Shown here one piece after another: positions 1-58,832 of a DNA stretch of 64,000 nucleotides (position 1 is its first letter; each line of letters opens with the position of its first letter). The notes under the pieces are model-generated. The model did no database searches and was not told where the DNA came from. It was given only the letters and a program-made list of their open reading frames with translations. The DNA is from an uncultured Candidatus Saccharibacteria bacterium. GTDB lineage: Bacteria > Patescibacteriota > Doudnabacteria > UBA920. A program made the translations under genes and the position numbers. The DNA lies in assembly GCA_964597895.1 (NCBI GenBank), contig CAZQZS010000001.1, forward strand, positions 183,178-247,177. The letters run 5' to 3'.

Positions 1-131
1 CCAGCGGCGAGGATACCTCCGGAAAGGGGAGGCAGACCGCGAAGCGGTCGTTGGAAAGGGTCCGGGTTAAGTCCAAACTTGGTTTGGACTGCTAACCGGT
101 GAAAACCCTTTCCGGGTTTCCCCCTCCAAGA
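1..131 (+). repeat. Family-A structured intergenic repeat, long variant, 5' end truncated by window edge; ends 6 nt before rplP ATG
   Basis: Near-identical to 4607-4756 (shares ggaaaggggaggcagaccgcgaagcggtcgttggaa plus 48-nt insert with gtccaaacttggtttggac hairpin and gaaaaccc/gggttt 3' hairpin ending cccctccaag). Confidence 0.8.
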
Positions 132-136
132 ACATT

Positions 137-4594: not shown

Positions 4595-4606
4595 CTAATT
4601 TAAACC

Positions 4607-4756
4607 CCGAGTCGTCTGGGTCTCCCAGCGACGAGGAAACTTAAGGAAAGGGGAGGCAGACCGCGAAGCGGTCGTTGGAAAGGGTCCGGGTTAAGTCCAA
4701 ACTTGATTTGGACTGCTAACCGGTGAAAACCCCTTCTGGGTTTTCCCCTCCAAAGA
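4607..4756 (+). repeat. Family-A structured intergenic repeat, long variant, occupying the position where rpmD (L30) normally sits; ends 5 nt before rplO ATG
   Basis: Near-identical to 1-131 over ~130 nt. Confidence 0.8.
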
Positions 4757-4761
4757 GATAT

Positions 4762-5196
4762 ATGATCAAGCTACACGATTTAAAACGTCATCCAAAATCA
4801 ACCAAGCGCCGCAAAGTTGTCGGTCGCGGTGTTGGTAGTGGACACGGTACCTATTCCACCCGCGGTGCCAAAGGTCAAAAGTCCCGCACCGGGCACTCCA
4901 AAACCCCAGCTCGCTTTGAAGGTGGCCGTCAACCGTTGATTCGCCAAGTGCCAAAGAGCCGCGGTTTTAAGAGCTTGCATGAAAGCGCGATGGCAGTGAG
5001 CGTTACTGCTCTCAATAAATTCGCCGACGGCGATGTTGTAACCATCGCAACCCTAAAGAAGGCAGGACTTATCCCAAGCACGGTTAATAGAGTCAAATTG
5101 CTCAAGGGTGATCTTAAGCGCAAGCTTACAGTCGGCGTCCCTGCGTCTGCGACAGCAAAAGAAGCTATCGAAAAAGCAGGCGGCAGCATTAAATAA
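4762..5196 (+). CDS. rplO: 50S ribosomal protein L15 (track ORF 4723 starts inside the repeat; true start 4762)
   Basis: MIKLHDLKRHPKSTKRRKVVGRGVGSGHG. Confidence 0.92.
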   Translation: MIKLHDLKRHPKSTKRRKVVGRGVGSGHGTYSTRGAKGQKSRTGHSKTPARFEGGRQPLIRQVPKSRGFKSLHESAMAVSVTALNKFADGDVVTIATLKKAGLIPSTVNRVKLLKGDLKRKLTVGVPASATAKEAIEKAGGSIK

Positions 5197-5241: not shown

Positions 5242-6534
5242 TTGTATAATACCAATATGAATAAACTCAGTTTAATTTGGAAAACTAAGGATTTGCGCTG
5301 GAAAATCACCATGGTGCTGATTCTCTTGCTGATGACCCGCGTTTTGGCGCACATCCCAATCCCTGGGGTTAGCGTAGAAGGTTTGCGGACTTTCTTTGAA
5401 AGCAACCAATTCTTGAATTTGTTGAATATTTTCTCTGGTGGTGGGCTGAGCAATTTTTCTATTGCTTTACTTGGTGTCGGTCCTTACATTACCGCATCTA
5501 TCATCATGCAACTCTTGGCCATGATCGTACCTTCACTGCAGGAATTGCAAAAGGAAAGCGGAGAAGCTGGTCGTACAAAAATCAACCAGTACACAAGATT
5601 CCTAACTATCCCATTAGCGATTTTGTCCGGATTCGGTACTATTCGCTTGCTGCAAAGCCAGGGCGGAGCAGAACTGCTCGGCGTGTTCACTCCTTTCCAG
5701 TGGTTTTTGACTTTGCTCGCGGTTACAGCCGGAACCATGCTAGTCATGTGGATCGGTGAAATTATTTCTGAGTACGGCATTGGTAATGGTATCTCTTTGG
5801 TAATTTTCGCAGGTATCGTTGCGCAGCTGCCAGCCAGCGCAGGCTCTTTGATTGAACTGTATGATCCAACTCAATTGCCGACAATTTTAGGTTTTGCTGC
5901 TGTCTCACTGCTGGTTATTGCTGGAGTGGTCTATGTAACTGAAGCTCAGCGGAATATTCCTGTATCTTATGCTAAACGCATGCAGGGTGAACGCCAGGTC
6001 GGCGGAGTCAGTTCTCATCTGCCTTTGCGTTTAAACCAAGCCGGTGTAATTCCAATCATCTTTGCCATTTCCTTGTTGCTGTTCCCAGCGATTATCGCCC
6101 AGTTCTTTGTGAACGCCAAAACTCCTTTGGTTGCAGAATGGGCGCAGAAAGCTATTGACTTCACTAATAATCAAGGGCTGTGGTACGGCGTGGCTTACTT
6201 CGTATTAGTGGTATTGTTCACCTATTTCTACACCAATATCGTGGTTAATCCTGATGATGTTTCCAAGAATATGCAGCGCAGCGGGGGCTTTATTCCTGGT
6301 ATTCGCCCGGGAAATCAGACAGCTGATTATCTTTATAAAGTGCTAAACCGCATTACCTTGCCTGGTTCGTTATTCCTTGGCACGATTGCTATTCTGCCGT
6401 TCTTGATGCAGACTTGGACAGGCACTCAAGCCTTAACATTCGGCGGTACCGGATTGCTTATTGTTGTATCGGTTGTCATTGAAAGTATCAAACAGGTTGA
6501 GGCACAACTTACAATGCACGATTACCAGAAATAA
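5242..6534 (+). CDS. secY: Preprotein translocase subunit SecY (start may be 5257)
   Basis: 430 aa, 10 TM segments, conserved plug and gate regions, operon position after L15. Confidence 0.93.
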   Translation: MYNTNMNKLSLIWKTKDLRWKITMVLILLLMTRVLAHIPIPGVSVEGLRTFFESNQFLNLLNIFSGGGLSNFSIALLGVGPYITASIIMQLLAMIVPSLQELQKESGEAGRTKINQYTRFLTIPLAILSGFGTIRLLQSQGGAELLGVFTPFQWFLTLLAVTAGTMLVMWIGEIISEYGIGNGISLVIFAGIVAQLPASAGSLIELYDPTQLPTILGFAAVSLLVIAGVVYVTEAQRNIPVSYAKRMQGERQVGGVSSHLPLRLNQAGVIPIIFAISLLLFPAIIAQFFVNAKTPLVAEWAQKAIDFTNNQGLWYGVAYFVLVVLFTYFYTNIVVNPDDVSKNMQRSGGFIPGIRPGNQTADYLYKVLNRITLPGSLFLGTIAILPFLMQTWTGTQALTFGGTGLLIVVSVVIESIKQVEAQLTMHDYQK

Positions 6535-14781: not shown

Positions 14782-14798
14782 ATTAAAATTTTTAATTC

Positions 14799-14934
14799 TT
14801 TGGCCAATTTCTTTGTCGTCAGCTCCGCTACTCGTTCACCGTAACTTTCATTACGACTCACTCGTTGCTCGCTGACTCCTGGCTCGCGATGGTCGGGCTT
14901 TGCCCGACCAAGCTCGTGTCGAACTTGACTCAAA
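14799..14934 (+). repeat. Family-C structured intergenic repeat, copy 1, with extra ggtcgggc-ttt-gcccgacc hairpin
   Basis: Shares ttggccaatttctttgtc...ctcgttcaccgtaacttNcattacgRctcactcgKtgctc...gaacttgRctcaaa with 17303-17400. Confidence 0.8.
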
Positions 14935-17302: not shown

Positions 17303-17400
17303 TTTGGCCAATTTCTTTGTCACCAGTTCCGCTCCTCGTTCACCGTAACTTTTATTACGGCTCACTCGGTGCTCACTGGTTTCGCGAACTTGGCTCAAAA
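17303..17400 (+). repeat. Family-C structured intergenic repeat, copy 2
   Basis: See 14799-14934; conserved hairpin cgtaa-cttttat-ttacg at 17344-17359. Confidence 0.8.
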
Positions 17401-22127: not shown

Positions 22128-22810
22128 TGGGCAAGTTAATCGTCGCTAACTGGAAACTTAATCCGCTCACCGAACGTGAAGCCATCTCTTTGTCTGAGCG
22201 CATCAAGCAGGTTAGCCCGTATGAAGTTGTTCTTTGTCCGCCATTGGCTTTTTTGAATTCGGTAAAGTATCTTCATCTGGGAGCACAGGATGTCTCCCCT
22301 CAAATTAAGGGACCATATACAGGACAGGTGTCAGCGAGCCATCTTGCCAGTTTGGACGTTAAGTATTGCATCGTAGGACACAGCGAGCGCAGAGCGATGG
22401 GTGAGAGGGACGATTTGATTAACCAAAAATTGCAGGCTTTAGTTCATTACAAAATTACTCCAATCCTTTGCGTAGGCTACGGTACTACGGTTAGTCAGGA
22501 TGAGTTAGAGGTCACTGATGTGCTAGGCTCTCAATTGAACCAGGATTTGGACGGCATAGATCCAAAAAAGATAATCGTTGCTTATGAGCCGGTCTGGGCG
22601 ATCGGCAGCGGCCGGGCAGCTACACCTGAACATGCCGAGCAAATAGCTTTGTACATTCAAACTAAGTTCGGAGTCAAGAAAGTTTTGTATGGAGGTAGCG
22701 TTAACAGTACCAACAGCGAAGCATTTTTGTCGCAGCATCATATTGATGGTTTGCTGGTCGGGGGAGCCTCTCTATTGCCAGATGACTTTAATAAGATAAT
22801 AAGAGCATGA
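22124..22810 (+). CDS. tpiA: Triose-phosphate isomerase
   Basis: ANWKLN, VGHSERR, AYEPVWAIG motifs. Confidence 0.9.
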   Translation: MMGKLIVANWKLNPLTEREAISLSERIKQVSPYEVVLCPPLAFLNSVKYLHLGAQDVSPQIKGPYTGQVSASHLASLDVKYCIVGHSERRAMGERDDLINQKLQALVHYKITPILCVGYGTTVSQDELEVTDVLGSQLNQDLDGIDPKKIIVAYEPVWAIGSGRAATPEHAEQIALYIQTKFGVKKVLYGGSVNSTNSEAFLSQHHIDGLLVGGASLLPDDFNKIIRA

Positions 22811-22817
22811 ATCAATT

Positions 22818-22978
22818 TCGCTCATTTGGCTTCAGTCGGAAGTAAATTCCAACCTTCAGCCAAATATCGCCCCTTTGGGGTTTAACCAATTGCTTCGTTA
22901 TTTTCCTCGGAACCCTGTCATCGTAGCTTTACTACGACTCCAGAGTTCCTCGGAAAATGCCTCGCACTTGGCTAAACG
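22818..22978 (+). repeat. Family-B structured intergenic repeat, copy 1 (contains terminator-like gcccctttggggttt and conserved hairpin cgtag-cttta-ctacg)
   Basis: Shares ~80 nt near-identity with 33974-34040 and a core related to family C. Confidence 0.8.
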
Positions 22979-23008
22979 AAAACGATTCATGTAAAAAGTA
23001 AGCATATA

Positions 23009-33973: not shown

Positions 33974-34136
33974 TCGCTCATTTGGCTTAAGTTGTAAGTA
34001 AATTCCAACTTTCAGCCAAATATCGCCCCTTCGGGGTTTAGTCAATTTCATTGTCATCGGCTTCCGTTACTCATTCATCGTACTATTAAGTACGACTCAT
34101 TCGTTACTCAGCCGATTCCTCGAGCTTGACTAAACG
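33974..34136 (+). repeat. Family-B structured intergenic repeat, copy 2 (gccccttcggggttt; hairpin cgtac-tattaa-gtacg)
   Basis: See 22818-22978. Confidence 0.8.
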
Positions 34137-41408: not shown

Positions 41409-41511
41409 TTATGATCTATTCGCGGATCTGGTTTTCCCAGGCCGAGAATCTCCAAGGAAGGGTGAGCTGTTGAGAGAAACACTTTTCAGGTCTCTTTCTT
41501 AATATTTTTTT

Positions 41512-41883
41512 ATGACTCCTGGTCAACTCATTTCCAAAACAGTACTCATGCAGCTATTTTTGGTGATCATCAAGATCATCTTTTTTGGTTTCTTAAACAT
41601 TGAGTTGTTATCAATTCTTATAGTCTATTATCTGCTTTTGGCAGCTTGTGCCATCGCTTTGGTTCGTCGCTTCGGCCCGCTTAATTACTTTGAGGCATTT
41701 CTGGCCATGGGGTTATGGTTAATACTCAGTTTAGTAATGGATTACTTAATTACAGCTTCCATTATCGGCAGGGAAGTGTTCAGTGATTATCATTTTTGGA
41801 TTTCATACGCCGTAGTACTCTTGGCTATACTGATCTTTCACAAAAAACAGCATGTGGAAATGCGCAAAGCTTTAAAGAAGTGA
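41512..41883 (+). CDS. Hypothetical polytopic membrane protein (123 aa)
   Basis: 4 hydrophobic helices. Confidence 0.5.
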   Translation: MTPGQLISKTVLMQLFLVIIKIIFFGFLNIELLSILIVYYLLLAACAIALVRRFGPLNYFEAFLAMGLWLILSLVMDYLITASIIGREVFSDYHFWISYAVVLLAILIFHKKQHVEMRKALKK

Positions 41884-47389: not shown

Positions 47390-48169
47390 TTAGGCCATGG
47401 CCGGAGCAAGATGTCTCTTGTAGGCCGTAATTAAATTGCGGGATTTTTCCGAGTCCAGCTGGTCTCGTTCATCCCGAATATTAGTTTCCGCATCAACGCA
47501 GAGCGGATAGTATTTGCGAAGCAGCGGTGCTACATATGGGACTGCTTCTGCATATAGCCCGCCGGCTATGCCGAATCTCAGAGAATTTTGTAGTCCTCTG
47601 GCGTAGAGTTCAGTCAAGTAGCCATCCATCACATCAACTTTGATGCCTTTGCCTGTTCCGCCCGAAGGATCGAGCAGTACATAGTCCACCAAGTCAGCGT
47701 ATTCTTTCTGGACTTTATCGGCAAGAATTTTTGGGTTCTTGTCGATTCTCTCGTAGGCGCCTGGCCCGATTTGCAGGACAATCAGGTGAGGGTAGTACAG
47801 ATTGCGAAATCTTTCGATTTCTTTCGGGTTAGGCCAAACCATGTTTAGCTGAAAACCGTGAAGGTTATGCCAGCCTTTGTCTCCAAGTCGCTGCAGTTCT
47901 GTGGTGAAATTATCGCTGCTGCTGTTATAGTGAATCATATTCAGCAGCCGTGGTGCTTCTAGCAGCAGAGAGGGGACTTCGCTGAGTTTAGGGTAGCGAT
48001 TGGGGTTACTAGCTGGCTCGCCGTTCAAAGTTTTGCGGCTGACCAGAATTCCTAACATCAGATAATAATCGGGGTTAGGGAGAATGGATGTATCGAACAT
48101 ATCCGAGCCAATCACATCGTATGCTTGTTCAGCGGTCGTTATTCCCGTAATTCCATAATAGGGATACAT
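47390..48169 (-). CDS. TIM-barrel protein with phosphoribosylanthranilate-isomerase-like (TrpF-family) motifs
   Basis: VLLDPSGGTGKGIKVD and GIAGGL resemble PRAI phosphate-binding motifs; low-confidence family assignment. Confidence 0.4.
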   Translation of the reverse strand: MYPYYGITGITTAEQAYDVIGSDMFDTSILPNPDYYLMLGILVSRKTLNGEPASNPNRYPKLSEVPSLLLEAPRLLNMIHYNSSSDNFTTELQRLGDKGWHNLHGFQLNMVWPNPKEIERFRNLYYPHLIVLQIGPGAYERIDKNPKILADKVQKEYADLVDYVLLDPSGGTGKGIKVDVMDGYLTELYARGLQNSLRFGIAGGLYAEAVPYVAPLLRKYYPLCVDAETNIRDERDQLDSEKSRNLITAYKRHLAPAMA

Positions 48170-48191
48170 AATCAGCCTCCTGTGGCAGTGT

Positions 48192-48437
48192 TTATTCGGC
48201 AGTTGCGTATTCGAATTTGAATTCGCTGGGGTAGCCTTCGCTCATCCATTTGTTAAGTGATTCTTCGGTTGGCGTACGTTGGCATTCACATGAACACTTG
48301 GCTGTTGGTCGGCCTGGGATTTCGATGTCCCTAAAACATTTATGTTCATGAACGCCTAATGCGCGGCACTCTGGGCAAGTCAACTTGCCATCCTCCTCTA
48401 GGATGGGGTTTCCCGCCCTGTCTTCAATTAGTCCCAT
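48192..48437 (-). CDS. Small Cys-rich (putative Zn-binding) protein; start moved to internal ATG preceded by AAGGAGG
   Basis: CPEC...C..C.C pattern; strong SD 8 nt upstream of internal ATG. Confidence 0.5.
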   Translation of the reverse strand: MGLIEDRAGNPILEEDGKLTCPECRALGVHEHKCFRDIEIPGRPTAKCSCECQRTPTEESLNKWMSEGYPSEFKFEYATAE

Positions 48438-48579
48438 TATTAGTTCCTCCTTTGCGGTAAATTGTGCCATAAAGGGTTAAAAAAAGCTACCCCAGCGGTT
48501 AAGCCCGACTATTCCCTCACAGCAAGTAGGCGCGGGAAATCCTGTTGATAAACCCCTCACTGGAAAGGGGGTGGTTTAG

Positions 48580-49089
48580 ATGTATACTCACCAATCTAAA
48601 AGGAGTAAAATAAGAGATATGTGGAAAAGAAGAAGACTTTTACTTTTATTGAAACATCTTGAAGGGTATATTGGTTCTGTTGCTCACAATCAGGGTGTTG
48701 GAATTTGGACTGACGAGGTTGGGGTGGATTCTATTCGTTTCCAAATATTTTATGAGTATCACAATAAGTTGAGATATTTTATTCAATTTGCCTTTAGGGT
48801 AAATAGAGAGTTTTCTCAAGATGAGGAAATACCTAAACCCAAAAAGAAAAGGTTTAATTTAGCTGAGTTTAATGAACTACTTAATGTTTTAGAAAAAGAA
48901 GGGTTAGTTAAAATAACTAAACTAGCTGTCCACGAAAATATAAGAATTACCCTTGAGGGCGAAGAATATATCAAGCCGGCTTATTTTTACACAGCCATCT
49001 TGGAGAAGTTTAAAATTTGGTATGTATTCTTCGCAGGCTTGCCAATAGGGTTTGTTATAGGAGTAATATACGAATATATTGGTAAATAG
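48580..49089 (+). CDS. Hypothetical protein in AT-rich islet (169 aa), C-terminal TM helix
   Basis: Markedly lower GC than surroundings. Confidence 0.45.
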   Translation: MYTHQSKRSKIRDMWKRRRLLLLLKHLEGYIGSVAHNQGVGIWTDEVGVDSIRFQIFYEYHNKLRYFIQFAFRVNREFSQDEEIPKPKKKRFNLAEFNELLNVLEKEGLVKITKLAVHENIRITLEGEEYIKPAYFYTAILEKFKIWYVFFAGLPIGFVIGVIYEYIGK

Positions 49090-49326
49090 GTGTGGATAAG
49101 ATACATACCAAAATGTATTTAATTGATATACAATAGATATATCAGAACTGTTCTTTCAAAATGAAAGAAAAATATAAGGAAAACATATAAAAGAAAAACC
49201 CGCTTGTTTAGAACAAACAGGTTGACTTTTATTGATTTCTAGTTATAATAAGGTTTCTTCGACTTTATTGCCTAGACGCGGGGCATATACTTGGGAGCAA
49301 CTATATCTGAATTTCAGGTAGTGCTG

Positions 49327-49431
49327 TGGAGAGGGCGCCGGGATTTGAACCCGGACCTTGGCCTAAGTTGGCCTGCCTCTGGGGAGGTACAGTTTTCAAG
49401 ACTGTTGCTTTTTCCATTAAGCTACGCCCCC
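49327..49431 (-). tRNA. tRNA-Ser(UGA)-like, 105 nt, with abnormal 34-nt variable region
   Basis: Acceptor GGGGGCG/CGCCCTC, D arm GCTT-AATGGAAA-AAGC, anticodon arm ACAGT-CTTGAAA-ACTGT, T arm CCGGG-TTCAAAT-CCCGG, encoded CCA. Confidence 0.7.
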
Positions 49432-49534
49432 AAGAGTATACACCCCGCGTCTGAGCAATAATAAAAACGCTCAGTAAATTATTCTCTCAGAAATATTTTC
49501 GAAGGGGATGATTAAGAACTAAGTTTCTAGAAAG

Positions 49535-49681
49535 CTACGTTTTCACTGACGTAGTTTTCTGCTTTTTAGGGCGAGCGGGAAACTTATACCACTTGCCTTT
49601 TGCAAGACGAAGCTTGCCTTTGATGTAGATTCCGTTGCAGAATATATAACCATCTTTTTCAAAGCATTGTTGACTAACCAT
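49535..49681 (-). CDS. Candidate small Lys-rich protein (48 aa, CxxxxxxxC)
   Basis: AGGAGG 11 nt upstream of ATG; not in track (short). Confidence 0.3.
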   Translation of the reverse strand: MVSQQCFEKDGYIFCNGIYIKGKLRLAKGKWYKFPARPKKQKTTSVKT

Positions 49682-49743
49682 AGATAGAAGAGCCTCCTTT
49701 CTCTTCAAAAGCACATCTGAAAGAACAATAGGTAGGTATCAAA

Positions 49744-49854
49744 AAAACTTGTACCCGATTCATAATGCAAGGCGCAGAACCCTTTCGGGAATACGCTTTG
49801 TAGCGCATGGACTTTTTAGTTTCCTTGCACTATGAATCCGACACAAGTTTAGTG
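49744..49854. repeat. Palindromic element: ~28-nt near-perfect inverted repeat (aaacttgtacccgattcataatgcaagg / ccttgcactatgaatccgacacaagttt) flanking 50-nt core with two small hairpins
   Basis: Seen directly; adjacent to IS1595 transposase 3' side. Confidence 0.55.
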
Positions 49855-50012
49855 TCATGGCTCTGCCTATCTTGAGGGGGTCCAACCCTGTTTGTAAAAG
49901 TACTGAAATAAATATAGCATATTCAAAAAGCCAAGCAAATAGCTTGGCTGTGGAAAACTGATTATGAATCAAGAACCAGAAAAACAAGACTTCTTTGACC
50001 TCCTCGACGAAG

Positions 50013-50855
50013 CTATTGGTGAACCAGCCGATTTAAAAGCACCAAGAAAATCGGAACAGGAGAGCGAGAGTGAGTCAGACGAAAGCTAAACTCGTTTAAG
50101 TAGTCCTGCAAATATTTGGGCGAGACTCTATGATACGTGCCATCGATAGACCGCTTGATTTGGCTAAAGAAGCCCTCAACGCTGTTGGTGTGAGTCCAGC
50201 CATTAACATACTGCTTACTAGAGTGGTTCACAGAGCTATGACCATAACCCTTTAGGCTCTTGCGGTTATACACCGAAGCACCGTCAGTCATAATCGCACT
50301 GCCGGCCTCAACCTCGTTATGGATTAACGGAATGGTATTGAACTGCTTTATTTTCTGCATTACCACAGCTTTAGCACTACCGCCACGCTGAACCAAACCT
50401 AAAACCTTTGGAACACCCGCCCTAGAGCGTGGTGTTTTCATTTTCTCCAAGTAGGCTTCATCCACCTCAACCACTCCGCTTAGTTTTAAGTCGCTCAAAT
50501 CCATAAGGGAGCGGATTTGTTTAGCGATACGCCAAGCAGTTTTGTAGGTTACACCCAAGTCTCTTTCCAACTCTTTGCCGGAAACTCCATTACGAGAGTT
50601 GGCGAACTTGTAAATGGCGAAGAACCACAAGACTAAATCTGTTTCTGATTTATGGAAGATAGTCCCAGCAGTGGGGTGAATTTGATAAGCACAGCTAGCG
50701 CAAGCCCACGCTTTGCGTTTCTTAATCCTGTGCCAACTAGACTTCCCACAGTTAGGGCAAGGGAACTGATAGCCATAACGATACTTAAAGATATACTCCA
50801 AGCAAGCGTCATTATCTGGGAAGTCTTTTTTGAAGTCTTTTATTGTGTATTTCAT
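50013..50855 (-). mobile_element. IS1595-family (ISXO2-like) transposase gene; IS boundaries not determined
   Basis: N-terminal Zn-ribbon CPNCG...CASC; DDE region with DEAY, TDGASVY, HSSVNHS..YVNG.HTNSVEGFFSQIKR. Confidence 0.85.
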
Positions 50856-51148
50856 ACATTAAAGTTAATTATATTTTGAGAGTAACTCCATACTTACTTG
50901 TTGTCAAGGGATAGTCGGGCGGTTAAGTGTGCATAACTAGGGAGCTATTTCGGAGAATCATCAAAACCTTTTTAATTAAGAGGGTTTTTTTAGTTTTGAG
51001 GTGAGGTATATAAATTGAAAAATGGGTCAGAGTGGGGTATACTGACTTCAAGTGGAATGGAGTGGGGAAAAGTGGGGATAAGTGGGTGGATAAGTGGACA
51101 ACTCAAATCATTCAGATTTCTGAAACTAACAGTAATAGACGCGAAGAC

Positions 51149-51246
51149 ATCTGGCTTTGCCAGGGTCTGAGCACCCAAGGAAAGGGGAGGCAGGAGCGAA
51201 GCGACGTTGGAAGGAGAAAACCCTTCCCGGGTTTTCTCCTCCAAAC
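51149..51246 (+). repeat. Family-A structured repeat, divergent copy, ending at the mraZ ATG
   Basis: tctggctttgccag...ggaaaggggaggcag...ttggaaggagaaaaccc...gggttttctcctccaaa; compensatory changes in hairpins. Confidence 0.7.
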
Positions 51247-51684
51247 TGTCTTATGTTTATCGGTGAATTTCAAGCATCAATTGATGATAAGGCCCGCGTG
51301 GCAATCCCAGCCAAGTTCCGCAGTTCTTTGAAATCAAAGGTCGTAGTAACCAGAGGGTTGGATAACTCCTTGGTTCTGTACACATTAGACGAATGGAAGA
51401 AGCTTGCCGAGAAGGTGGCTAGTCTCCCAATTTCTACTGCCAACACGCGCGCTTTTTCTCGTCTGATGCTTGCAGGAGCAATGGATTGCGATATTGATAA
51501 GCAGGGTCGCATTGTCATTCCAGGCTACCTCAAGGAATTTGCCAAGATTTCCAAAAAGCTTGTTTTCGCCGGTCTTTATAACCGCGTGGAAATTTGGAGC
51601 GACGAAGCTTGGCAAAAATACAAAACACAAACAGAAAAACAAAGCAATCAAATTGCCGAACAATTGGGTGATCTAGGAGTATAA
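51247..51684 (+). CDS. mraZ: Transcriptional regulator MraZ (track ORF 51157 starts inside repeat)
   Basis: MFIGEFQASIDDKARVAIPAKFR and second SpoVT/AbrB-like repeat. Confidence 0.9.
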   Translation, partial: CLMFIGEFQASIDDKARVAIPAKFRSSLKSKVVVTRGLDNSLVLYTLDEWKKLAEKVASLPISTANTRAFSRLMLAGAMDCDIDKQGRIVIPGYLKEFAKISKKLVFAGLYNRVEIWSDEAWQKYKTQTEKQSNQIAEQLGDLGV

Positions 51685-58545: not shown

Positions 58546-58620
58546 TGGCTGGGGTACCAGGATTCGAACCTGGGAATGAGCGGACCAAAACCGCTTGCCT
58601 TACCACTTGGCTATACCCCA
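58546..58620 (-). tRNA. tRNA-Gln(UUG)
   Basis: Cloverleaf: acceptor TGGGGTA/TACCCCA, anticodon arm AGCGG-TTTTGGT-CCGCT, T arm CCAGG-TTCGAAT-CCTGG, G73+CCA. Confidence 0.85.
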
Positions 58621-58696
58621 ATATATAATTTTCTGATTCGTTTGCCTGTGTCCGCTCTGAGCGGACCTCTATAATATAACGGCTACTGGCGTAAGC

Positions 58697-58731
58697 CTAT
58701 GGCGCTTGCCTTACCACTTGGCTATACCCCA
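58697..58731 (-). pseudogene. Duplicated 5' half of tRNA-Gln (~30 nt identical to 58593-58620)
   Basis: gcttgccttaccacttggctatacccca repeated 104 nt downstream. Confidence 0.6.
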
Positions 58732-58832
58732 ATAATTTTCAATTAGCCTTGATATGATACCGAAAATAGTGGTTTTTGGCAAGAATGCGCGCGTTTTTGT
58801 ATGGTATAATTTACCTATATTTAACAAGATTT

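Follow-up and report, generated by a model that had tools for sequence, protein, structure and literature searches.

Upstream of mraZ, the first gene of the dcw cluster, a 64,000-nt stretch of Saccharibacteria DNA (the window) carries a small structured element, here named family A, which also precedes three ribosomal-protein genes of the same stretch. The mraZ coding sequence is located at 51253-51684 on the forward strand and encodes a protein of 143 aa starting with MFIGEFQASIDDKARV...; the Pfam family PF02381 was precomputed for all of its listed homologues. The mraZ promoter (TTGAAA, a 17-nt spacer and TATACT; 51015-51043, +) has a layout conserved in the relatives. Six direct AGTGGRR repeats with a period of 10-11 nt were read from the sequence at 51031-51099 (+), upstream of the element and in the same transcript; this MraZ-operator-like array is presumably the MraZ operator, judging from the GTGGG repeats of E. 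coli. Between the array and the start codon, a whole family-A element of the short form occupies 51140-51248 (+) in the mraZ 5' untranslated region (UTR), as placed by the covariance model R1 and by alignment with the other copies. It scored 100.7 bits (E ~1e-23) with R1, a model built from six copies including the mraZ one, so that part of this score is built in. Independent support for the mraZ copy as a family-A member comes from the exact 15-mer and from the fold traced by hand, both described below. The element is slightly longer than the span 51149-51246 given in the initial annotation, which omits the first 9 nt of its first hairpin, P1.

The mraZ copy consists of four parts. P1, located at 51141-51172 (+) by sequence reading and covariation, has 2 base pairs (bp), a tandem G.A/A.G, 4 bp, a one-base bulge and 4-5 bp closed by the loop CUUUG, and it appears in the minimum-free-energy folds. 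It is followed at 51179-51193 (+) by the invariant purine 15-mer GGAAAGGGGAGGCAG, which contains a Shine-Dalgarno-like GGAGG and is exact in all four window copies. The mini-hairpin P3, formed around GCGAAGC and assigned by alignment to 51194-51205 (+), is present as the variant GAGC-GAA-GCGA, with a tandem G.A where the ribosomal-protein copies have two C-G pairs. The hairpin P4 (UUGGA-A-GGAGAAAACCC / GGGUUUUCUCCUCCAA; 51207-51244, +) was recognized from sequence reading, folds and covariation. Its 3' strand holds CCUCC and the end of the helix is separated from the ATG by 8 nt; the hairpin closes with ...ctcctccaa, followed by actgtctt and the ATG at 51253. The sequence at 51207-51253 thus agrees with the 3' hairpin and adjoining ATG that had been annotated initially.

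The other copies of the window, all on the forward strand, are a long form before rplP (ATG at 137), cut by the window start (1-133; 127.5 bits), a short form before rplN (ATG at 1102; 983-1094; 114.1 bits), and a long form with an additional hairpin, P4a, before rplO (ATG at 4762; 4605-4757; 170.7 bits). A decayed family-A-like copy precedes an open reading frame (ORF) at 41512-41883 (41417-41506; 19.8 bits, E 0.004). Family A is hence multi-copy in the 64 kb, with four copies and one decayed copy, all intergenic. The 15-mer GGAAAGGGGAGGCAG has four exact occurrences in the window, one per copy, and a scan allowing up to three mismatches gave only these four. The proposal that the mraZ leader is a diverged member of the family preceding the three ribosomal-protein genes has therefore been upheld by the covariance-model match, the exact 15-mer and the P1/P3/P4 fold. 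In the decayed copy P1 and a degenerate 15-mer (AAGGAAGGGTGAGC) are still discernible, another hairpin (GAGAGAAAC/GUCUCUUUC) stands in place of P3 and P4, and the ORF behind it is without a Pfam match.

The short form of family A measures ~110 nt and the long form ~150 nt, the latter owing to P4a, a 41-nt hairpin inserted in P4 so as to give a three-way junction; P4a was found at no other window position. Among orthologous rplP copies, that of L016 (loci fetched from other genomes for comparison are numbered L001-L032) is short and those of L017 and the window are long. The presence or absence of P4a is clean when L016 (1-66) is set against L017 (1-82) and the window (1-133), the flanks and an A.C mismatch in P4b being common to all three; from these alignments P4a appears to behave as a nested insertion or deletion inside family A. 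The long-form copy before rplO occupies a spacer (4595-4761) in which there is no rpmD (L30) between rpsE and rplO. Absence of rpmD has been reported for all bacteria of the candidate phyla radiation; in other bacteria the gene would be expected in that spacer. Family A is open in several frames, so the longest ORFs of rplN, rplO and mraZ (1000-1473, 4723-5196 and 51157-51684) traverse it. Moreover, public gene calls of L14, L15, L29 and a prepilin protein have false N-terminal extensions such as ...ERGGRPRSGRWKGKTPSGFSPPK....

Fold, covariation and database searches

The fold was evaluated in an alignment of 15 family-A copies (A4), which was fitted to the covariance model and so favours the structure. 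In this alignment 94.4% of the cells pair, against 37.6-53.1% with the partners slid, and double changes are present at 13 of the 46 pairs, against 4.8 +/- 1.3 in shuffles; the observed values were reached by none of the 500 shuffles. Covariation is seen at 8 of the 10 P1 pairs, and the outer pair of P3 covaries too. Reading by hand showed the four middle P1 pairs to be G-C/C-G/U-A/G-C at rplN as against C-G/A-U/G-C/A-U at mraZ, and one outer pair to be C-G in the former copy and G-C in the latter, which brings the P1 pairs changed on both sides to five of ten. In P4, GGGG/CCCC is replaced by the compensatory GGAG/CUCC in the mraZ copy. These double substitutions bear out the earlier statement that the structure is kept by compensatory changes, and the additional homologues of the 15-copy alignment strengthened the pairing rather than breaking it. 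Fourteen of the aligned copies extend over the 15-mer GGAAAGGGGAGGCAG, and it is unchanged in 13 of them. A hand count on the alignment gave sense-strand G.U pairs in about four lineages versus one A.C. Taken alone, the mraZ copy folds modestly better than its shuffles (z = -2.5) and the rplN copy more strongly (z = -4.1), and this range together with the covariation indicates the stable secondary structure that is characteristic of interspersed repeats.

Other pairings were considered as well. A long-range pairing of the 15-mer with the 3' strand of P4 was the first RNAalifold prediction. Its partners are both invariant and it may form, but the GGAG/CUCC double change seen at mraZ makes the local P4 helix more likely. 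A G-quadruplex of two tiers within the 15-mer was rejected, since it would demand a zero-length loop. A pseudoknot between the pyrimidine-rich loops of P1 or P4 and GGAAAG was also considered and not retained, as the 15-mer never varies. Likenesses seen by eye to RNase P P4, SRP domain IV and 16S h45 were dropped since they are not present in all copies. The flanks are able to pair at rplN (UAUUC/GAAUA) and at mraZ (AGAC/GUCU), but inconsistently across the copies.

The exact core pattern was found in the GTDB species genomes at four loci of three metagenome-assembled genomes labelled Candidatus Saccharibacteria or Patescibacteria, and in metagenome contigs at two loci, both identical to L002; in viral contigs it had no match. 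This pattern was too strict, as copies found later have the P3 loops GCA, AUA or GGA. The three-frame translation of the element, used as a query, gave four hits only, which added the L29, L15 and prepilin contexts. When the whole window was scanned with Rfam 15 at gathering thresholds, only two tRNAs and no family-A match were returned, and permissive Rfam scans of three family-A copies gave only chance-level hits far below threshold. Literature searches for the motif, or for such repeats or leaders in Saccharibacteria or the candidate phyla radiation, found no description. Family A is a new family within a kind of element already known; neither Rfam 15 nor the literature that could be searched describes it.

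Turnover of family A among close relatives

The promoter-operator block of mraZ was present in every relative examined, and the AGTGGRR array is conserved in L007, L008, L011, L023 and L025. Pairwise alignments run at near-identity through the operator and then diverge totally up to the mraZ ATG. An orthologous family-A copy precedes mraZ in L002 (UBA926; L005 and L006 are identical to L002) and a degenerate one in L022. The mraZ UTR is short and plain, with no insert, in L008-L011; it has an unrelated insert in L007, and in L023 and L025-L029 a different repeat (type gtcatcctgag...ctcaggatgac) sits at the family-A site. The MraZ proteins of the window and L023 are 95.8% identical, yet their leaders hold family A and the other repeat, respectively, and the same contrast separates L002 from L025 of the L025-L029 group, at 98.6% identity. 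Across genomes whose MraZ is 85-99% identical, the leader thus contains either family A or another repeat, or is empty. This stretch of the 5' UTR is hypervariable, and the mraZ copy occupies it in a lineage-specific manner and is not a fixed leader of mraZ; the real control element of mraZ is the conserved promoter with its MraZ-box operator, not family A.

Two further differences were noticed at this locus. An IS1595-family transposase (DDE_Tnp_IS1595 and zinc ribbon; 50013-50855, -) lies directly upstream of the mraZ promoter region in the window. The upstream neighbour of mraZ is a SpoU methylase in every relative fetched, so the synteny at 47390-50900 has been replaced in the window. In L002, a ~58-nt tandem repeat (GTAGCAGTTATCCATCCCGGAAATCCGAGCTTG.GAGGATTATCCGG.ATCCACATGTAG; ~2.5 copies, ~5900-6100, -) is located upstream of the family-A mraZ leader, and it is absent from L025 despite the 98.6% identity of their MraZ.

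A similar picture was obtained for the ribosomal-protein operon. Ten loci have an L14 identical to that of the window, but their spacers differ, with family A before different genes or absent. The S17-L14 spacer measures 22, 60 or 66 nt in identical-L14 loci; in the window it is filled by family A and reaches ~130 nt. The S3-L16 spacer is 9 nt long in L012, whereas family A is found there in L013, L016, L017 and the window. L030 has two copies, before rpmC and secY, both at sites that are empty in the window, and a short-form copy before rplO was seen in another lineage through extended gene calls. Further family-A contexts in other metagenome-assembled genomes are frr, rpmC, secY, the prepilin gene, rplP, rplO and mraZ. 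Orthologous sites are hence filled in some close relatives and empty in others (S17-L14, S3-L16, L16-L29 and L15-secY spacers), and at mraZ, rplN, rplP, rpmC and secY the element is not stably tied to one and the same ortholog. Four short-read contigs (L004, L016, L017 and L032) stop within family A. An intact antisense copy is present in the rpsR-efp spacer of L001 and, with 171.5 bits, has the best score of all copies. The sampling behind these comparisons is biased, as the loci were fetched via ribosomal-protein and MraZ proteins and the window covers 64 kb of the genome.

The same ribosomal-protein spacers harbour at least five other repeat families, unrelated to family A, and three of these families recur in the window. 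The 174-nt rplE-rpsN spacer (2357-2530) is a 95% identical copy of the rplD-rplW repeat of L012, a second mobile family in the same operon. An intergenic repeat family at 22807-22988 and 33974-34136 shares 93% identity with the element in the L16-L29 spacer of L012-L014, and another, at 14797-14861, 17303-17365 and 34038-34113, matches part of the L14-L24 spacer of L012.

Between the window and L030, third codon positions are only 44-60% identical, near saturation. Identity among their non-orthologous family-A copies nevertheless amounts to 71-85%, and the 15-mer, P3 and P4 hardly differ. Individual insertions hence turn over fast while the family persists, a pattern that is the signature of an actively propagating repeat or cassette. 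Family A is very probably a mobile or insertion-polymorphic repeat rather than a dedicated regulator. Its presence before both ribosomal-protein genes and mraZ reflects the spread of the element and not a shared control circuit. The initial annotation had also suggested a shared regulatory logic of the ribosomal-protein and dcw operons, for example growth-rate coupling; this part does not hold, as the leader is variable among genomes with near-identical MraZ and L14. The tempting inference of a riboswitch-like leader common to ribosome synthesis and cell division in Saccharibacteria is thereby removed.

The same observations bear on the possibility of a dedicated cis-regulatory RNA, a riboswitch or protein-binding leader sensing a common signal such as growth rate and co-regulating the ribosomal-protein genes and the dcw cluster. 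Covarying stems, an invariant junction and an optional variable hairpin form the usual signature of a functional RNA, and most of the downstream genes are translation-related or highly expressed (L14, L15, L16, L29, SecY, RRF, pilin and MraZ). However, the element is not tied to orthologous genes, being present, absent or replaced among near-identical genomes, one intact copy is antisense, and mraZ has its own conserved operator. Moreover, no Rfam model matches and no expression platform was found: P4 leaves both the AUG and any Shine-Dalgarno site uncovered, the predictions show the region of the AUG mostly unpaired, and no U-tract follows P4, save by chance in L001. A dedicated regulator of this kind is accordingly regarded as very improbable.

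Start-codon distance and possible roles of the transcript

Family A has been found at nine independent sense sites (before rplP, rplN, rplO, rpmC, secY, frr, mraZ and the prepilin gene, and at a site after ymdB) and at one antisense site. Relative to the ATG, the CCUCC strand of P4 stops 9-13 nt upstream (median 10) in 10 of the 11 sense copies, and the last helix ~8 nt upstream. The spacing of ~10 nt is kept in the long mraZ UTR and in the L030 spacer that already holds another repeat. A Shine-Dalgarno core is present at -20..-4 in 14 of 66 genes, none of them a ribosomal-protein gene. The background is 7.5%, and because of this enrichment the anti-Shine-Dalgarno sequence of the host is probably functional; in a survey, loss of the anti-Shine-Dalgarno motif has been reported only in a Parcubacteria subgroup (PMC9297842). 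The predicted duplex of the 15-mer with an assumed standard 16S tail has an energy of -12.2 kcal/mol, on par with the genome's own Shine-Dalgarno sites.

Considering these results together, we read family A as a small structured interspersed repeat of one Saccharibacteria lineage acting as a co-transcribed leader module, and we place the probability of this reading at about 0.5. Copies would be gained and lost quickly in transcribed spacers, nearly always in sense orientation, and the mraZ copy would be an insertion into the variable 5' UTR downstream of the promoter and the MraZ-box operator. The element is probably co-transcribed, as the mraZ promoter lies upstream without a convincing terminator between them and the ribosomal-protein copies are operon-internal; the terminator scan from the mraZ promoter to the ATG gave a single consensus match (51209-51227), inside P4 and at chance level. 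The RNA is predicted to fold as the P1 hairpin, the single-stranded 15-mer GGAAAGGGGAGGCAG and then the hairpins P3 and P4. The Shine-Dalgarno-like 15-mer may dock 30S subunits as a standby or STAB-SD-type site, and the flanking hairpins, P1 on one side and P3/P4 on the other, may protect the RNA ends. Docking and protection could together keep the downstream cistron translated and stable despite its separation from the upstream gene, and if the module plays such a role, insertions before highly expressed genes would therefore be tolerated. This RNA-level role, 30S docking or 5' protection, is modelled from the predicted fold and duplex and is put forward tentatively, with considerably less confidence than the mobile nature of the repeat. 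A Firmicute-like decay system is plausible because RNase Y is present in a relative, being encoded beside the family-A copy of L004.

A number of points weigh against this reading. With respect to mobility, neither terminal inverted repeats nor a target-site duplication was found in the filled/empty comparison of the S17-L14, L15-secY and mraZ sites, and no conserved flanking or target motif was seen, the 5' flanks being AT-rich but different (ttct, aaac, taga, gata, ttaa, ataa). Family A has no known partner transposase; the window contains a single transposase, an IS1595-family one whose ends are not those of the element, and movement is read solely from the presence/absence patterns. With respect to a leader function, the prepilin copy (L031) lies 49 nt from its ATG, an exception to the spacing that does not suit a strict function of this kind, and the intact antisense copy of L001 is unfit for it. 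The GGAGG precedes the AUG by 62-105 nt, and two helices and no fewer than 13 single-stranded nt intervene. At this distance it cannot be an ordinary Shine-Dalgarno site; as in STAB-SD, a Shine-Dalgarno-like motif complementary to the 16S 3' end, taken to be a standard one, lies too far from the AUG to direct initiation. Further, the accessibility predicted for the GGAGG is inconsistent, its probability of being unpaired ranging between 0.01 and 0.49 depending on the copy, and an upstream CCUCC pairs with it in the rplN and rplP copies. The sequence conservation of P4 is superfluous for a mere protective hairpin and is left unexplained.

Some of these points lead to an account in which family A is a purely selfish repeat at the DNA level. 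Its hairpins and invariant motifs would then be recognized on one DNA strand by a mobilising enzyme, in the IS200/IS605-derived or REP manner, the fold of the transcript would be incidental and neutral for expression, and the proximity to start codons would reflect tolerance of insertions in very short spacers. Such an account fits the quick gain and loss, the contigs that break in the element, the intact antisense copy and the at least five unrelated repeat families in the same spacers. It also fits the 15-mer and P4, which are conserved in sequence and not just in pairing across genomes with saturated synonymous sites. The element has subterminal hairpins, P1 near its 5' end and P4 at its 3' end, and no terminal inverted repeats or target duplication, a trait of IS200/IS605- or REP-like elements, and most window genes lie on one strand, which makes the sense bias inseparable from a replication-strand bias. 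On the other hand, no Y1/HUH or other partner transposase was seen in the 64-kb window, the IS1595 one does not share its ends, and no target tetranucleotide is conserved 5' of the element. Moreover, the ATG distance of ~10 nt is kept where space is not limiting (mraZ UTR and L030), and the free covariation of P1 is unusual for an end recognized by a transposase. We regard the purely selfish account as rather unlikely, slightly more so than the docking or protection role. Assignment to the IS200/IS605-derived elements cannot be made because no target motif was found and a transposase could be searched for in 64 kb only. A MITE (miniature inverted-repeat transposable element) in the strict sense is also rejected, as the element is without terminal inverted repeats or target-site duplication.

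The order of hairpin, single strand and hairpin, with an invariant motif in the single strand, would also fit an intercistronic processing cassette. In that case an endonuclease such as RNase Y would cut in or near the single-stranded 15-mer and uncouple the neighbouring cistrons, P1 becoming the protective 3' hairpin of the upstream fragment and P3 with P4 the protective 5' structure of the downstream cistron. RNase Y-dependent maturation of operon mRNA beside stem-loops is known in Firmicutes (cggR-gapA of Bacillus subtilis). The sense orientation within long operons, the P4 end that leaves just enough room for a ribosome before the AUG, and the RNase Y gene next to the L004 copy are in line with such a cassette. 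The copies in the mraZ and prepilin 5' UTRs, however, are not intercistronic, the sequence conservation of P4 would be unexplained, and to our knowledge RNase Y has no strict sequence motif. The probability of a processing cassette is hence considered low, little above that of the dedicated regulator.

A bolder version of the leader reading takes the fixed start-codon distance as its starting point. Family A might serve highly expressed genes without a Shine-Dalgarno site as a portable translation-initiation leader and spread among them, its cargo being the ribosome-binding structure itself. The invariant 15-mer would be its own docking motif, and the GGAGG-like/CCUCC helix of P4 would be carried along. 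The CCUCC would lie ~10 nt before the AUG, where the Shine-Dalgarno/anti-Shine-Dalgarno duplex normally sits on the 30S platform, so that P4 could be an in-cis mimic of that duplex or a ruler setting the start codon. We hold this version to be unlikely, though somewhat less so than a processing cassette. A split Shine-Dalgarno site was rejected on geometry, since CAG, CG and ~8-11 nt stay unpaired and two helix junctions remain after folding.

Comparison with known systems and further observations

The closest likenesses of family A are to the BOX elements of Streptococcus pneumoniae, ERIC/IRU, the Correia/NEMIS elements of Neisseria, REP/BIME and the IS200/IS605-derived palindrome-associated elements. 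Like family A, the BOX, ERIC/IRU and Correia/NEMIS elements are ~100-200 nt long, multi-copy, intergenic and strain-polymorphic, with a predicted stable fold of the transcript. BOX, ERIC and Correia elements are also found in 5' UTRs and operon spacers, where they are able to alter neighbour expression or RNA processing, and BOX is modular through the optional boxB as family A is through the optional P4a. However, family A has no sequence similarity to them and is without the terminal inverted repeats and target duplication that Correia and ERIC have; it is almost always in sense orientation, it places CCUCC 9-13 nt before the start codon, and it combines an invariant 15-mer with a freely covarying P1. 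Saccharibacteria are a new host phylum for BOX-like elements, as far as the literature searches show. The REP/BIME and IS200/IS605-derived elements resemble family A in being hairpin-based and strand-specific, without terminal inverted repeats or target duplication, and scattered in operons. REP, in contrast, is a single hairpin of ~35 nt, usually after genes and linked to RAYT, and family A is a multi-helix element of 110-150 nt before start codons, with no RAYT or Y1 transposase and no conserved target motif seen.

At the RNA level, the comparison with STAB-SD concerns the 15-mer. The STAB-SD motif of cry3A, which we take to be GAAAGGAGG, is like the GGAAAGGGGAGG of family A a strong purine motif far upstream of a start codon with potential for pairing to the 16S 3' end. 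STAB-SD is linear and short and is found at the 5' end of a single processed transcript, whereas family A is repeated, mobile and multi-hairpin, with a variable predicted accessibility. Such a distant Shine-Dalgarno-like site stabilises the mRNA through 30S binding in Bacillus thuringiensis cry3A (PMC4113751). The ribosomal-protein leaders and riboswitches of Rfam share with family A a structured, covarying RNA directly upstream of ribosomal-protein genes; family A differs in having no model match, in not being bound to orthologous genes and in having no expression platform with the ribosome-binding site in it. Phage T4 gene 38, with its split ribosome-binding site, likewise has a hairpin between the Shine-Dalgarno sequence and the start codon. 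In that gene one hairpin brings the Shine-Dalgarno site within ~5 nt of the AUG, whereas at least 13 unpaired nt and two helices remain between the GGAGG and the AUG in family A.

This study documents the rapid turnover of small structured repeats in a reduced genome, within its most conserved operon. Two features of family A are left unexplained, the invariant 15-mer beside a freely covarying P1 and the CCUCC-bearing helix ~10 nt before start codons; the near-fixed distance of the latter is notable where the ribosomal-protein genes lack Shine-Dalgarno sites. If translation or mRNA stability were modulated by the element, it would illustrate how tightly coupled operons can tolerate insertions, and it could become a compact expression part in those few Saccharibacteria that are genetically tractable. 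With regard to annotation, family A explains contig breaks in the S10-spc operon, false N-terminal extensions (L14, L15, L29, MraZ and prepilin) and the variation of spacer length between strains.

Two tRNA loci of the window were also noted. A 102-nt tRNA at 49330-49431 (-), recognized by Rfam with 62 bits and missed by ARAGORN, has the anticodon loop CUUGAAA, which was read as Ser-UGA, and an unusually long variable arm. In case of tRNA-Gln(UUG) at 58546-58620 (-), a 32-nt stretch over its 5' end (58592-58623) is repeated exactly ~110 nt away (58703-58734), and this repeat could be the remnant of an integration site.

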